Positions 14,994 to 18,708 of a stretch of DNA of 22,945 nucleotides are shown one piece after another. The translations under genes were made by a program, and so were the position numbers. The stretch lies in the IMG/VR virus record IMGVR_UViG_3300031578_000354, one strand, 5' to 3'. The notes under the pieces were generated by a model that saw only the letters and a list, made by a program, of their open reading frames with translations, had not been told where the DNA came from and did no database searches. This DNA comes from a virus. Numbering within the stretch: position 1 is the first letter of the stretch; each line of letters opens with the position of its first letter.

Positions 14994-15431
14994 TTACCAT
15001 CTCCTATCCTCAACCTCTTTCTTTGGAGGTCCTGGAAGTGGCCCTGGGTTTGGTATCGGCTCGATGCCGGGCCAAGGCCCTTGATCAATTAGTATTCTTA
15101 TGTTTTTTCCAGGCTGCGGAACATCGTCATCAAATGCTGCGGGATTAGAAGCGTGTGGTCTACAATCTGTCCAACAATCAAACATAGTTTCATTAAAGCA
15201 CACACCGTCTCCACAATAGCCGTTTGTTGGCCCACCAGTTAACAAATCTACACAGTCAAGACAGTTCCAATAATCTTCTCCTTTGTTTCTTTCACATACA
15301 TTGTTTCCACAACTCTCTTCATTCGCAGCAGGTTCTTTCTGAATGGATACATCTTCTTCTTGATCATCCACAACAGGTTCACCTCCGCATCCAATAATTC
15401 CTACCATCAATGCTAATATAAAGGTTCTCAT
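14994..15431 (-). CDS. Cys-rich, Pro-rich lipoprotein (145 aa)
   Basis: Signal peptide with lipobox MRTFILALMVGIIG-C. Ten further Cys in CGNNVCERN...CLDCVD...GYCGDGVCFNETMFDCWTDC. The C-terminus is proline-rich (GPWPGIEPIPNPGPLPGPP). The start overlaps the stop of the upstream NTase gene (ATGA). Confidence 0.6.
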   Translation of the reverse strand: MRTFILALMVGIIGCGGEPVVDDQEEDVSIQKEPAANEESCGNNVCERNKGEDYWNCLDCVDLLTGGPTNGYCGDGVCFNETMFDCWTDCRPHASNPAAFDDDVPQPGKNIRILIDQGPWPGIEPIPNPGPLPGPPKKEVEDRRW

Positions 15432-16630
15432 TTAAAAAACGACTCCTGTACGATCTCCATACAAAGTTTATCAATCTTGTTATAATTAGGAGTTCTCGGT
15501 AATGGCGATTTGCCGGACTCATAAAATTCATCAAGTTTATGTTGTTGATTATCCGCCCATTGGATTAGGTCATCGAACTTCCAAGTCCCCTGCCTAATCG
15601 ACAGCAGTTCTTCCGCATCTGGCCTACAAACAATTACTTTACCATCTGTCAGAATCTCTTCAGCCATACGTAAAAGTCTTACAAGATGACTGGCATGCTT
15701 TCCATCATAGCCAAATTTTGCTTCCATCGAAGCTCGGGCTGGATTTCGATTGATCTTCCATTCCTGATATTGATTATAATGCTTAAGTGCTCCCTTGTAT
15801 CTTCGCTCGGCATCCAAGAGTGCCAGAAAGTTTGTATCATATCCAAGTCTTACGCCAGCAGCATTGGACAGAGTATTGATATCAAACTCTCCATCGATTA
15901 TAGGGAATGGTATGTTGCCAGTAACATCATACTCTGCGGCCAATCCAATCAACGATTCCCACACCTCTATAATGGTTTCAATCGTATTTATGCGAACAGA
16001 CTCTAAGATCTCTCGGGGAAGCTCATCCTCTAATAGAAGCCATTTATTTACTTGTTTCTTTATCAAACCCTCTGCTGCTTCCCTATGATCTCGTGGTATA
16101 AGGCTACGCTCTGGCAAACCAAAATCTTCTCTTAAGGGCTTGTTTTTTGGCGGATTGAGTAGCCAAGATCTATGGGTTTTTATTCTTTTAAGTTGGGCAA
16201 AAGCATATCCGCAGAAACGAAACTTAGCCTTTGTAGAAAGAAAAAGATCTCGGTTTTCTATTAATTTAATAAGTGCTGGAGATGTTACAAGATGTAAACG
16301 CTCATCAGTAAAAAGAACTTCAATAATGTTTGGATTACAATCAGATGCAAGCTTTAAAAACTTTCGTATATCATAGATTGTAGAATCAATGCGTTCATTA
16401 TCTGGCACTTTTCTACCAACAATCTGTTCAATTTTACCAATAAAGTTATCATATTGTCTTGGAAACTCTCCCTCAAACTGCTCAAATCTTTTAGAGAATC
16501 CTTGAAAAAAGTTTCGCGGTGGAATGGCAATGCCCTTAACATCCACATCAGATCCAGATGTTGCCATACCATAAGCATGACTTCCATGAAGCGTAATGAA
16601 AATGGTATGGTCTTCTATTTTGAATTCCAT
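15428..16630 (-). CDS. RlaP-like (PF10127-type) Pol-beta superfamily nucleotidyltransferase, 400 aa
   Basis: N-terminal NTase signature ITLHGSHAYGMATSGSDVDVKGIAIPP (GS...SDxDxxG). The family is known to be associated with RNA ligases in RNA-repair operons. AAGGA RBS at 7 nt. Confidence 0.7.
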   Translation of the reverse strand: MEFKIEDHTIFITLHGSHAYGMATSGSDVDVKGIAIPPRNFFQGFSKRFEQFEGEFPRQYDNFIGKIEQIVGRKVPDNERIDSTIYDIRKFLKLASDCNPNIIEVLFTDERLHLVTSPALIKLIENRDLFLSTKAKFRFCGYAFAQLKRIKTHRSWLLNPPKNKPLREDFGLPERSLIPRDHREAAEGLIKKQVNKWLLLEDELPREILESVRINTIETIIEVWESLIGLAAEYDVTGNIPFPIIDGEFDINTLSNAAGVRLGYDTNFLALLDAERRYKGALKHYNQYQEWKINRNPARASMEAKFGYDGKHASHLVRLLRMAEEILTDGKVIVCRPDAEELLSIRQGTWKFDDLIQWADNQQHKLDEFYESGKSPLPRTPNYNKIDKLCMEIVQESFFK

Positions 16631-16632
16631 TT

Positions 16633-16899
16633 CTATTCCTTAAAGTCGTGTATGCCAGACCATTTAAACCCAAGTGATATAAGTTTATATTGTATTTTAT
16701 CTACATCACGATTCCAAGCTGGTTCATATGAACTCTCTTCTATTCTATCTAAAAGAGTAGAAACATTGTTAGTAATTATATCTTCAAGATCATCCCATAC
16801 CTCTTCAGAATAGTCTGGCCCATTGTAGTCAAACTGAAAGTAAGCTCCAATCTCGACATCATGTTCGATACTAAACGAAAAGTTTTTTGCTGTGGCCAT
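16633..16899 (-). CDS. small acidic hypothetical protein (88 aa)
   Basis: ORF lying 2 nt from each neighbour. Asp/Glu-rich. Confidence 0.45.
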   Translation of the reverse strand: MATAKNFSFSIEHDVEIGAYFQFDYNGPDYSEEVWDDLEDIITNNVSTLLDRIEESSYEPAWNRDVDKIQYKLISLGFKWSGIHDFKE

Positions 16900-16900
16900 T

Positions 16901-17233
16901 TTATTCTTTTCCCCATGTCCGGCCAGTATCTGGCCAATTTAATAGAGTTTTTTCTATAATGTGTTGGGCAAATCTTGCATCTAATCCAGCACAACACAGA
17001 TCATCTGTGATTTGGCGAGCAAGAAAATCTGAAGTGTTTTTCCAATCTTCAAAAATGACTTTTGATGTATTATCTGATTTACAAGACAGTATAGTATCTT
17101 CTCTTAGCAGAGGACACAATGGATCAATTTCGCCGTCTGCACCACCAGGTCCACCGGGATGATTACAGACTAAACATCCATATGTTTCTCCGAGCATTGG
17201 GCACTCAGTACAACGTTTGATCAATATGTCCAT
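16901..17233 (-). CDS. Cys-rich small protein (110 aa), paralog of 17928..18113
   Basis: Motif shared with the 61-aa paralog: C-T-E-CPMLGE-x3-GCLVCNHPGGPGG-x9-CPLLREDTI-x-S-x-KSD. GGGAG RBS upstream. Confidence 0.55.
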   Translation of the reverse strand: MDILIKRCTECPMLGETYGCLVCNHPGGPGGADGEIDPLCPLLREDTILSCKSDNTSKVIFEDWKNTSDFLARQITDDLCCAGLDARFAQHIIEKTLLNWPDTGRTWGKE

Positions 17234-17290
17234 TCTATTTCTCCCATATCTGTAATGTTTGAATATACTATTTCAGTTGGAGTTTTACTA

Positions 17291-17710
17291 TTAACAGAAC
17301 AGTAACCAGCCAACATATCCAAGGACTGCTCCTAGAGTTAATATAGCACCCAACAATGCTAATAGTGAGCCGCTAAGCTTTGCTACAAACACCACATTTT
17401 CTTTCATCGCGTATTTTAAATGTTCCATTTCAGTTGGTTTGTTTATTTTATTTAAATAGTTTTTGATGGTCTGTGGAATAGATAATACGCCAAATAATAC
17501 AAGTCCAACTACCATAAATGATACTATTAATGCTCCTAAACCGAGAGATCCAGCACCCACATATTCCATCAAGGTCATAGACGATTTACATCCCATTAAA
17601 CTAAGTTTGTCTTCTATTATTATAGCACAAGAAAAAATGCTACAAAGAAAACCTATTATTATAGCGATCTTAGCTCTAACAGATAATGCTCTTATTTTTT
17701 CTAACATCAT
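17291..17710 (-). CDS. membrane protein (139 aa), paralog of 11921..12388
   Basis: AGGAG RBS at 6 nt. Four hydrophobic segments. The C-terminal LGYVGWLLFC matches the other paralog. Confidence 0.55.
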   Translation of the reverse strand: MMLEKIRALSVRAKIAIIIGFLCSIFSCAIIIEDKLSLMGCKSSMTLMEYVGAGSLGLGALIVSFMVVGLVLFGVLSIPQTIKNYLNKINKPTEMEHLKYAMKENVVFVAKLSGSLLALLGAILTLGAVLGYVGWLLFC

Positions 17711-17718
17711 TTCATCTC

Positions 17719-17931
17719 CTACATTATGATAGGTATAAGGTCTATAGGTGTTCCTGTTTTTTCATCTACTGCAGGAACATCTTTCCAATGTGTTTCACCA
17801 GTTTGTACATCTCTAAATCCATGTTGAAGAACAAAAGTTAACTCTGGCAAAGATTCTATTTTAACATAACGGCGAACATATCGGAAACTGTTTGTAGATT
17901 GATACGCTGTAAATTCTTTTTTCATAATCAT
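17719..17931 (-). CDS. small hypothetical protein (70 aa)
   Basis: ORF with 4-nt overlaps to both neighbours. Confidence 0.4.
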   Translation of the reverse strand: MIMKKEFTAYQSTNSFRYVRRYVKIESLPELTFVLQHGFRDVQTGETHWKDVPAVDEKTGTPIDLIPIIM

Positions 17932-18113
17932 TCTTCCATCGTTTCAACATCACTCTTAAGTGATATTATAGTATCTTCTATTAATAGTGGACATTTTGGA
18001 TGTATAGGTTCATTTCCAATACCAATAGGACCGCCAGGATGATTACAAAATAAACATCCATGTACTTCTTCAAGCATCGGACAATCATCACAACCCTTAA
18101 CAGATATTTTCAT
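17928..18113 (-). CDS. Cys-rich small protein (61 aa), paralog of 16901..17233
   Basis: C-D-D-CPMLEE-x3-GCLFCNHPGGPIG-x9-CPLLIEDTI-x-S-x-KSD. AAGGAA RBS at 7 nt. Confidence 0.55.
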   Translation of the reverse strand: MKISVKGCDDCPMLEEVHGCLFCNHPGGPIGIGNEPIHPKCPLLIEDTIISLKSDVETMEE

Positions 18114-18126
18114 TTTGTTTCCTTAT

Positions 18127-18708
18127 CTACTCCTCCATAGGACAAACGATTCTAAACTTTGATTTTAATTCGTTATATTCTGATTGCCAATAATCTTTAT
18201 ATGGCTGCCACTTTTTAAAATTCTGCTCAACAATCTTATTCCAATAACGATTAGCCGTATCATAGCGCACAATTGTGCCAGCATGGGCAATCTGAATCCC
18301 AAAATTTAGAATTCGTAGAGAATGAAAAAGAGATTTCATTCCAACACGATATTCTTGATGAAGATCTATTTTCTTCTTTGCCTTTATCCAACTGTTGCTT
18401 GCTTTGGCACTAAATGATTCCCTCAGTTTTGTTTTGTCCAATGAAAACTGGAAGTTATGAAGTTCAATCTTTGGCTTATCAGGAAGAAAGAAGCACTCCA
18501 AGGCACTTACATGATGGCCATTTATAAGTTCCTGAAAGTAATTAACAGGATAGGAAGTGATGTTGAATCTTCCAGCAAATGTTTGAGATTCTTTTTCTTT
18601 TTGATGGTCAACAATAAAGATATAATCTACATCACTTTCATCATCATTTGTTCCATAGACATGAGATCCATAGAGATAAATATTTAAGAGCCGCCCTGTT
18701 TGTTCCAT
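18127..18708 (-). CDS. RlaP-like Pol-beta superfamily nucleotidyltransferase, short paralog (193 aa)
   Basis: IYLYGSHVYGTNDDESDVDYIFIVD carries the same GSHxYG...SDVDxx signature as the 400-aa protein. Confidence 0.65.
   Translation of the reverse strand: MEQTGRLLNIYLYGSHVYGTNDDESDVDYIFIVDHQKEKESQTFAGRFNITSYPVNYFQELINGHHVSALECFFLPDKPKIELHNFQFSLDKTKLRESFSAKASNSWIKAKKKIDLHQEYRVGMKSLFHSLRILNFGIQIAHAGTIVRYDTANRYWNKIVEQNFKKWQPYKDYWQSEYNELKSKFRIVCPMEE

Follow-up and report, generated by a model that had tools for sequence, protein, structure and literature searches.

RlaP is the most prevalent nucleotidyltransferase (NTase) of jumbo phages, and its occurrence tracks that of RNA ligases (PMC7824862). 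A December 2025 preprint with a crystal structure describes RlaP as adding one or two nucleoside monophosphates (NMPs) to the 3′-OH of RNA, with a preference for damaged RNA, and as being needed to restore the aminoacylation of over-trimmed repaired tRNA (PMC12776372). In this study, we analyzed a locus carrying such an enzyme in a 22,945-nucleotide (nt) stretch of virus DNA, IMG/VR record IMGVR_UViG_3300031578_000354, referred to below as the window. Seven open reading frames (ORFs) at positions 15428–18708 encode, 5′ to 3′ on the minus strand, NTase-193, Cys-61, a 70-amino-acid (aa) protein, TM-139, Cys-110, acidic-88, and NTase-400. A first-pass annotation had placed these ORFs correctly, all on the minus strand, and had interpreted them as a functional triad of an RlaP-like NTase, a small Cys-rich protein, and a membrane protein ending in WxLFC, duplicated as a whole and then diverged. 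It had also held that RlaP has no established activity, a statement now out of date in view of the NMP addition to RNA 3′-OH reported in the preprint.

Known relatives of NTase-400 are the RlaPs of RNA-repair operons (Pseudomonas fluorescens, Pseudomonas aeruginosa, T4 NrdC.11, and jumbo phages), and, as is typical of RlaP, the NTase-400 gene lies in a cassette with an ATP-dependent RNA ligase (PMC7824862, PMC12776372). In our reading, a large and probably jumbo phage carries a cassette of RNA-repair genes here, and the region is its 5′ portion, with a conserved pair of adjacent NTase genes and, between them, a variable slot carrying accessory small genes; we give this reading a probability of about 0.68. 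Phage RNA-repair gene sets that combine RlaP with an ATP-dependent RNA ligase are a known class, and this cassette would be a further member; its accessory ORFans are uncharacterized. The value of the analysis is mostly corrective, as the apparent duplicated three-protein machine resolves into a known cassette type and lineage-specific orphans.

NTase-400 (15428–16630, minus strand) scored 63.4 bits against the RlaP model PF10127 (cut-off, 23 bits; E = 3.4e-17), which is above the gathering threshold, and matched phrog_388, annotated as "nucleotidyltransferase", over its full length (residues 5–396; 1.2e-62). By these profiles, NTase-400 is a bona fide RlaP. The Pol-beta catalytic motifs and a C-terminal helical domain are present; G16, S17, D28, and D30 are invariant in an alignment of six orthologs, as is the K..H..R helix, and the hhalign register points to E104 as the third carboxylate. 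In contrast to typical RlaPs, NTase-400 has an insertion of ~125 aa (residues ~165–290), as seen in an alignment with the ~295-aa RlaPs of related phages. The insertion is present in the orthologs of L100, L101, L103, and L127 (396–424 aa) and absent from the RlaPs of L098, L012, and L014, where L numbers denote contigs with related loci. No sequence relative was found among solved structures in a copy of the Protein Data Bank (PDB) that lacked the RlaP structure of the preprint. A gene for an Rnl1-type (T4 RnlA-like) RNA ligase of 376 aa (8896–10026, minus strand; PF09511, 3e-11) lies 5.4 kb downstream in the same co-oriented block, and the association of RlaP with an ortholog of this ligase is repeated in L101, L103, and L127.

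NTase-193 (18127–18708, minus strand) is a short Pol-beta NTase, ~100 aa shorter than typical RlaPs, with a predicted fold of an NTase core followed by a HEPN-like four-helix bundle (AF2 model, pLDDT 96). It scored 18 bits against PF10127, below the cut-off of 23 bits and over residues 10–38 only, and passed only the generic NTP_transf_2 model. Among 45 members of its family (NT193), 10 matched RlaP at E ≤ 0.01 and 37 matched NTP_transf_2. When compared in hhalign with the RlaP alignment of the clade, the NTase-193 family gave a probability of 92% (E = 5.5e-7); the 143 aligned columns cover both domains and take in the C-terminal K..H..RL helix. A jackhmmer search from NTase-400 drew in the whole NTase-193 family at 1e-5 to 1e-22. 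In the pairwise BLASTP comparison of NTase-193 and NTase-400, only 19 residues around GSHxYG..SDVD were aligned, of which 11 were identical (E = 5e-4). Judged from these comparisons, NTase-193 has the two-domain plan of RlaP and is its remote relative, or sister family, and not a member by the curated definition. Rather than recent paralogs, the two proteins represent separate families that parted anciently within the RlaP-like branch of the Pol-beta superfamily. The RlaP-like assignment of both NTases in the first-pass annotation is supported, with NTase-400 as a member and NTase-193 as a remote relative; the motif GSHxYG...SDVDxxG ascribed to both is shared as far as SDVD, NTase-193 having SDVDYIF at this site.

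The NT193 family is large (>256 clusters, ~190–215 aa) and resides mostly on phage and metagenome contigs, with members on large phage contigs and in Bacillus phages (FADO and phage G gp109), Prevotella phages, a 635-kb uncultured phage, and a few bacterial contigs. Residues G14, S15, D26, and D28 are invariant in the family, and E71 and a basic C-terminal patch are nearly so; this conservation of catalytic residues makes NTase-193 consistent with an active enzyme. The NT193-like family is thus compact, widespread, and uncharacterized and recurs directly upstream of RlaP in one phage clade, and with the activity of RlaP now reported in the preprint, it is a candidate for a second RNA-end-restoring enzyme. 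The best matches of the NTase-193 model among solved structures were HalB, the kanamycin nucleotidyltransferase ANT(4′), and AadA (identity ~10%; TM-scores ~0.4–0.57), and in BFVD the model matched viral NTases at TM 0.8–0.87. The fold was also found in giant-virus proteins (TM 0.83–0.87), some of which are fusions, with Endonuclease V in a 1081-aa protein of Yasminevirus and with an exonuclease in a 794-aa protein of Terrestrivirus; these fusions suggest a role in nucleic-acid end processing.

Homologs of NTase-193 were followed to their contigs, and IMG/VR and JGI metagenomes were scanned. L100 (NT193, 82%) carries NT193, RlaP-396, and a major vault protein (MVP) gene, with a TAATG overlap between the NT193 stop and the RlaP start and nothing between them. 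L098 (NT193, 77%) carries NT191, Cys-109, acidic-79, RlaP-294, a lipoprotein, MVP, TM-166, and p95, and L101 (NT193, 65%) carries NT197, an unrelated 70-aa ORF, RlaP-405, a lipoprotein, Metallophos, p96, and, further on, Rnl1. In L103 (RlaP, 57%), the order is p263, NT193, a slot of 1.5 kb, RlaP, two proteins with three transmembrane segments (3-TM), p96, a Gad2-like protein, Rnl1, and Lon; in L127 (RlaP, 66%), it is p263, RlaP, and, after an interval, Metallophos, p96, Rnl1, and Lon, without NT193. In L012–L014 (NT193, 59–62%), four to eight unrelated small ORFs separate NT193 from RlaP, over a distance of 1.8–2.9 kb, and in L040, L079, L088, and L092/L094, RlaP is located 0.1–1.4 kb downstream of NT193 on the same strand. 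Compared by gene order, the clade has the backbone p263–NT193–RlaP–(lipoprotein–MVP, or Metallophos)–(TM)–p96–(DUF5658)–(Gad2-like NTase)–Rnl1–(AAA)–Lon. Orthologs of the ligase, Lon, and AAA ATPase of the window are syntenic in the relatives, and the NT193-RlaP pair lies inside the backbone in L098, L101, L103, and L120. A conserved tandem pair of this kind distinguishes the locus from the known RlaP operons, and the RlaP papers that we consulted do not describe it.

The slot between the two NTase genes contains 0, 1, 2, 5, or up to 8 genes depending on the lineage, and the slot ORFs of the relatives, with the exception of L098, are not homologous to those of the window. Five small genes fill the slot in the window. 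Cys-110 and acidic-88 are common with L098, and by this comparison Cys-61, the 70-aa orphan, and TM-139 are extras of the window lineage; the positionally conserved copies are Cys-110 and acidic-88 upstream of RlaP and TM-155 downstream of MVP. The NTase pair occurs without Cys or TM genes in L100, L101, L103, L120, L012–L014, L088, L092, and L079. L100 and other loci thus show that the NTase pair can do without the small slot proteins, which we consider facultative accessories. Other slots have contents of their own. That of L103 (2907–3773) holds four tandem paralogous proteins of ~75 aa with two transmembrane segments (2-TM), and in L014 (7525–8415) a NUMOD3 endonuclease gene on the opposite strand is located inside the NT193-RlaP slot. 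In L013 (9485–11224), a 223-aa ORF with a faint HTH_50 match, which may be a mobile insertion, divides the RlaP gene into two ORFs.

Cys-61 (17928–18113, minus strand) is a lone 55-aa Cys-rich domain, and in Cys-110 (16901–17233, minus strand) the domain (residues 1–54) is fused to a C-terminal domain of ~55 aa. The close resemblance of the two proteins noted in the first-pass annotation was borne out: 35 of 55 residues (64%) were identical (BLASTP, E = 7e-22), and the Smith-Waterman score was 182 versus 26 ± 4.5 in shuffles. Their DNA identity is 73–78% and is limited to ~165 nt of the domain. With a dN/dS of 0.28 and a dS of ~1.06, both copies are under purifying selection, and the duplication is not recent; by these substitution rates, both are functional genes. 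The domain residues of Cys-61 are C8, C11, C20, C23, H25, and C41. Both copies in the window have the C8-x2-C11 and C20-x2-C23 knuckles, and the divergent ortholog that stands at the position of Cys-110 in L098 (Cys-109, 109 aa) has lost C20 and retained C8, C11, C23, H25, and C40. The only Pfam match of the domain is weak (HVO_2753_ZBP, E = 0.07), and the AF2 model of Cys-61 has a pLDDT of 41. The domain is putatively Zn-binding and may be a small adaptor.

The C-terminal domain of Cys-110 (FEDWKNTSDFLARQ...NWPDTGRTWG) exists as the stand-alone homologs P0003 and P0004. The gene for P0003 (71 aa) overlaps the 3′ end of a gene for a 472-aa CCA-adding enzyme (PolyA_pol and HD) on an unrelated phage contig (L007, 6625–8236), and an AEP-like primase comes after P0003. 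Homology between the C-terminus of Cys-109 of L098 and this domain was not detectable. The acidic 88-aa protein (acidic-88; 16633–16899, minus strand) contains 19 D+E versus 7 K+R, is encoded 2 nt upstream of RlaP, and has an ortholog in L098 (acidic-79; 3e-17). For the 68/70-aa ORF (17719–17931, minus strand), an orphan, neither relatives nor similarity to the remainder of the block were detected, and it is unrelated to the 88-aa ORF.

TM-139 (17291–17710, minus strand) and TM-155 (11921–12388, minus strand), the latter being the positionally conserved copy, each have three hydrophobic segments, a GC loop motif, and a C-terminus of the form GYVxWxLFC (GYVGWLLFC and GYVWWILFC, respectively). 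The GYVxW(I/L)LFC C-terminus had been taken as a mark of paralogy, and the pair supported this: BLASTP gave 26% identity over 120 aa (E = 4e-4), and the Smith-Waterman score of 115 compared with 33 ± 6 in full shuffles (reached by 0 of 2000) and 43 ± 9.6 in block shuffles (0 of 500). Their 3′ ends share 74% DNA identity over 39 nt. On these scores, TM-139 and TM-155 are true but distant paralogs. TM-155 has an ortholog, TM-166, at the same position in L098 (2e-28), and no homologs of TM-139 beyond the window pair were found in a database of 5.8 billion proteins. In L103 (5013–5853), RlaP is immediately followed by a tandem of 3-TM proteins, 144 and 131 aa long, which have an EGCS loop motif and end in ...IIC; they scored only z = 2–5 against the TM family and may be distant relatives of TM-139 and TM-155.

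Homologs of the Cys and acidic proteins were found only on the window's own contigs, the longest of which on record measures 55.6 kb, and in L098, and the same applies to clear TM homologs, with the L103 proteins as a possible distant pair. None of the three occurred in the 84 NT193 loci or in 80 metagenomic RlaP loci; in all, about 170 other loci with either NTase lacked them. A search of 1.84 billion representatives with Cys-61 (E ≤ 1e-3) gave no homologs beyond the two proteins of the window, and pattern-based scans of IMG/VR and GTDB genomes with alignments of the Cys and TM families found nothing. The 5.8-billion and 1.84-billion protein searches with the two families returned the window's own proteins only, with limited power for a 55-aa domain, since the divergent Cys-109 of L098 scored ~28–31 bits, which is significant locally but would miss the cut-off when billions of proteins are searched. 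With so narrow a distribution, the Cys and TM families offer no basis for comparative inference.

The comparison of the two sets of genes shows how much of the locus was duplicated. Outside the Cys domain and the TM 3′ end, blastn and tblastx detected no DNA or translated similarity between them, and the sets are not colinear (NTase-Cys-x-TM versus Cys-x-NTase...TM). This pattern shows no sign that a module was duplicated as a segment. What was copied into the slot is a Cys domain, giving Cys-61 from Cys-110, and a TM gene, giving TM-139 from TM-155; the NTases were not involved. An origin of Cys-61, the 70-aa ORF, and TM-139 by duplication of the whole block and later internal deletion found no support, as no trace of it was detected outside the same two segments. 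By sequence, the Cys domain and the GYVxWxxFC membrane protein are two orphan families prone to duplication.

These results leave the duplicated triad highly improbable. It could draw on the presence of two members of each of three families in one co-oriented block and on the duplication of both Cys and TM in the same genome, with the extra copies adjoining each other and NTase-193. However, the NTase pair is the older element, and at least 10 related loci have it but lack Cys and TM genes, L100 having no gene at all between the NTase genes, and the gene order and the confinement of similarity to the Cys domain and the TM 3′ end do not fit duplication of a unit. The ages of divergence are also incompatible, because the Cys copies are 64% identical whereas the NTases match only at the active-site motif. 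Among the three proposed paralog pairs, the Cys (64%) and TM (26%) pairs proved genuine, and the NTase pair came down to the 19-residue motif. The expected co-occurrence of the three families across genomes was seen only in L098 and in 0 of 84 NT193 loci and 0 of 80 RlaP loci. Lack of covariation between the small proteins and the NTases in other genomes was the refuting condition set by the first-pass annotation itself, and the triad fails by it. The proposal that NTase-193 is not an RNA-repair enzyme but a HalB-like DNA or oligonucleotide synthase is likewise highly improbable. Such an enzyme might, for example, be a phage decoy whose oligodeoxyadenylate product holds the HalA channel of a Hailong-type system shut, with TM-139 as its partner. 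The NTase-193 model shares with HalB, ANT(4′), and AadA an NTase core followed by a HEPN-like four-helix bundle, but this fold is also that of the KNTase/ANT enzymes and, by description, of RlaP; identity to HalB is ~10%, and the family cut-offs were missed by wide margins (HalB model NF051895, 25.6 bits versus 190, at the N-terminal motif only). The sequence-profile affinity of NTase-193 is to RlaP, its conserved neighbor is RlaP and not a TM protein, its context is RNA repair and not defense or antibiotic resistance, and TM-139 has no relatives beside NT193 homologs elsewhere. PADLOC gave no Hailong match in the window and only weak PDC-S09 motif matches.

In the RNA-repair cassette that we favor, host ribonucleases would cut and trim tRNA or other RNA, and RlaP (NTase-400) would re-add one or two nucleotides to the 3′-OH without a template, as shown for RlaP elsewhere. 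NTase-193 would also modify ends but differ in the substrate or nucleotide that it prefers, as its fold, its intact G-S/DxD/E catalytic set, and its conserved adjacency suggest, and the Rnl1-type ligase would then seal the break. For the TM proteins, a place of action at the membrane, next to the lipoprotein-MVP unit, is probable; the roles of the small proteins as a whole are only faintly indicated. The cassette resembles T4-type tRNA repair (Pnkp and Rnl1) and jumbo-phage sets in combining an Rnl1-like ligase with end-modifying enzymes in a phage, and its presumed role is likewise to counter host anticodon nucleases. Unlike these systems, the block also encodes MVP, a lipoprotein, TM proteins, Lon, and an AAA ATPase, and it has no recognizable Pnkp-like kinase/phosphatase in the window, whereas L101 and L127 carry a Metallophos phosphoesterase. 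Some bacteria divide CCA addition between CC-adding and A-adding tRNA nucleotidyltransferases, which are class II CCA-type enzymes of one family. As a working analogy, two related template-independent NTases such as NT193 and RlaP could share the rebuilding of 3′ ends, but here they do not belong to one family of that class.

Several observations weigh against the RNA-repair reading. The ligase matched TIGR02308 at 1.9e-13, below the equivalog cut-off; the window has no identifiable polynucleotide kinase/phosphatase, and when it was scanned for tRNAs and Rfam families nothing was found, including any tRNA-like partner RNA. NT193 homologs are mostly without an adjacent RlaP (~76 of 84 loci), so that the pairing is clade-specific and not obligate, and L127 has the backbone but no NT193. 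The relatives are mosaic and give no direction for gain or loss in the slot. Further points concern the small proteins as mere accessories: L098 has kept the Cys-acidic pair immediately before RlaP, although the RlaP there is only 34% identical, a homolog of the Cys-110 C-terminal domain adjoins the CCA-adding enzyme in L007, and one and the same genome has duplicates of both Cys and TM. Cys-110 and acidic-88 are separated from their neighbors by only 1–2 nt. Together with the retention in L098 and the overlap of P0003 with the CCA-adding enzyme gene, these short gaps are weak hints that Cys-110 and acidic-88 relate to RNA 3′-end enzymes and may not be mere passengers.

The same observations bear on two further explanations of the small genes. 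The five slot genes could be cargo unrelated to RNA repair (anti-defense, host-takeover, or superinfection-exclusion genes) gathered in a recombination-prone gap; we consider this somewhat unlikely. The differing slot content of every lineage (from none to eight genes), the tandem 2-TM paralogs in L103, the homing-endonuclease-like genes in or near the slot of L014 (NUMOD3) and L013 (split RlaP), and the orphan status of the slot families would all fit cargo. However, tight translational coupling and the position of Cys-110 and acidic-88 immediately upstream of RlaP in two lineages do not, the L007 association suggests a link to RNA 3′-end enzymes, and the conserved TM copy stands outside the slot. 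Alternatively, the small proteins could be accessory subunits of a membrane-tethered, vault-like RNA-repair compartment, with the lipoprotein and TM protein anchoring an MVP shell, the Cys-domain and acidic proteins adapting or regulating RlaP, and Cys-61 and TM-139 forming a second adaptor and anchor pair for NTase-193. The shoulder of MVP belongs to the SPFH/band-7-like modules, which Burroughs and Aravind reportedly proposed in 2016 as RNA-repair scaffolds. The lipoprotein-MVP-TM order is kept in the window and L098, MVP adjoins RlaP in another lineage (L150), the Cys-acidic pair was kept upstream of RlaP across an RlaP allele swap, and the Cys-110 C-terminal domain occurs beside a CCA-adding enzyme in L007. 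Nevertheless, the NT193-RlaP-MVP order of L100 comes with no gene for a lipoprotein, Cys, or acidic protein, the lipoprotein of L101 is not accompanied by MVP, and two uncultured phages have MVP without RlaP or ligase within ±17 kb; moreover, the sample comprises two lineages known from genes alone, and the Cys-61 model is of low confidence (pLDDT 41). We therefore regard such a compartment as quite unlikely. Its fullest form is very doubtful: NT193 and RlaP would be an obligate two-enzyme system for 3′-end rebuilding on a membrane-tethered MVP shell, with TM and lipoprotein anchors, Zn-dependent Cys and acidic adaptors docking the NTases, and Cys-61 and TM-139 dedicated to NT193. If true, each NTase would add a different nucleotide, and the phage would build its own RNA-repair compartment.

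The MVP homolog of the window (851 aa; 12445–15000, minus strand) matched MVP_shoulder (1e-17) and Vault_3, and upstream of it lies the gene for a predicted lipoprotein (14994–15431, minus strand) with a signal peptide, an IIGC lipobox, and Cys-rich repeats (CGDxxC...CxDC). The lipoprotein has orthologs in L098 and L101, and MVP is also found in L098, L100, and L150; the lipoprotein-MVP-3-TM trio recurs in L098, the MVP gene of L150 immediately precedes that of an RlaP of another lineage, and L101 and L127 have the Metallophos phosphoesterase in the position of MVP. Homologs of 35–37% identity are present in uncultured phages of 462 kb and 735 kb (LR756500 and LR756501), in which no RlaP or ligase was found within ±17 kb of MVP. 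An MVP homolog agrees with the report of MVPs in gut phages (bioRxiv 10.1101/2023.11.10.566534), but in the window its gene is set between those of RlaP and the ligase and has lipoprotein and TM protein genes on either side, and the text of that report does not mention nucleotidyltransferases, RNA ligases, or gene neighborhoods. The linkage of RlaP and an Rnl1-type ligase with an MVP so flanked could help to test the idea of vault or SPFH proteins in RNA repair.

All genes of the window are on the minus strand, and megablast of the whole window against GenBank phages gave no match. None of the Cys, TM, 70-aa, 88-aa, and lipoprotein ORFs could be assigned to a family with PHROGs, Pfam, or PADLOC, and no additional copies of the NTase, Cys, or TM families were found in the window. 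The intergenic gaps of the block range from −7 to +13 nt, apart from two wider ones of 57 nt (TM-139 to Cys-110) and 56 nt (MVP to TM-155), and the lipoprotein ORF overlaps both the RlaP stop and the MVP start. The gaps of 1–13 nt and the overlaps suggest that the block is co-transcribed. A GC-rich terminator-like hairpin of 11 pairs with a T-rich tail (12412–12437, minus strand) is located between MVP and TM-155, and a second strong one (19469–19509, minus strand) is located upstream of a 162-aa ORF; overall, the number of terminator-like sites in the window was not above that in shuffled sequence.

Beyond TM-155, the block continues with p96 (11623–11913, minus strand), a conserved backbone protein with homologs in L098, L101, L103, and L127, followed by a DUF5658 membrane protein, a 213-aa NTase-like protein, a 204-aa ORF, the Rnl1-type ligase, an AAA ATPase, and Lon. 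The 213-aa protein (10654–11295, minus strand) is a third Pol-beta-type candidate with the motif GGAAL...DWDLFF; it matched phrog_4400 and phrog_1614, and its precomputed Pfam assignment is Gad2, an anti-Gabija protein. In the window, the 204-aa ORF stands between it and the ligase, and in L103 it is directly upstream of the ligase. Positions 718–1413, 3607–4350, and 5184–8899 (minus strand) hold genes for a prokaryotic E2 family D protein, a DUF7227 protein, full-length Lon (784 aa), and the 453-aa AAA ATPase; Lon comes after the ligase in L103 and L127 as well. At 20815–21324 (minus strand), a 169-aa NadD-like nicotinate/nicotinamide mononucleotide adenylyltransferase (TIGR00482, 2e-29) suggests NAD+ synthesis or salvage by the phage, and its ortholog in L013 is encoded beside a nucleoside deoxyribosyltransferase-like gene.

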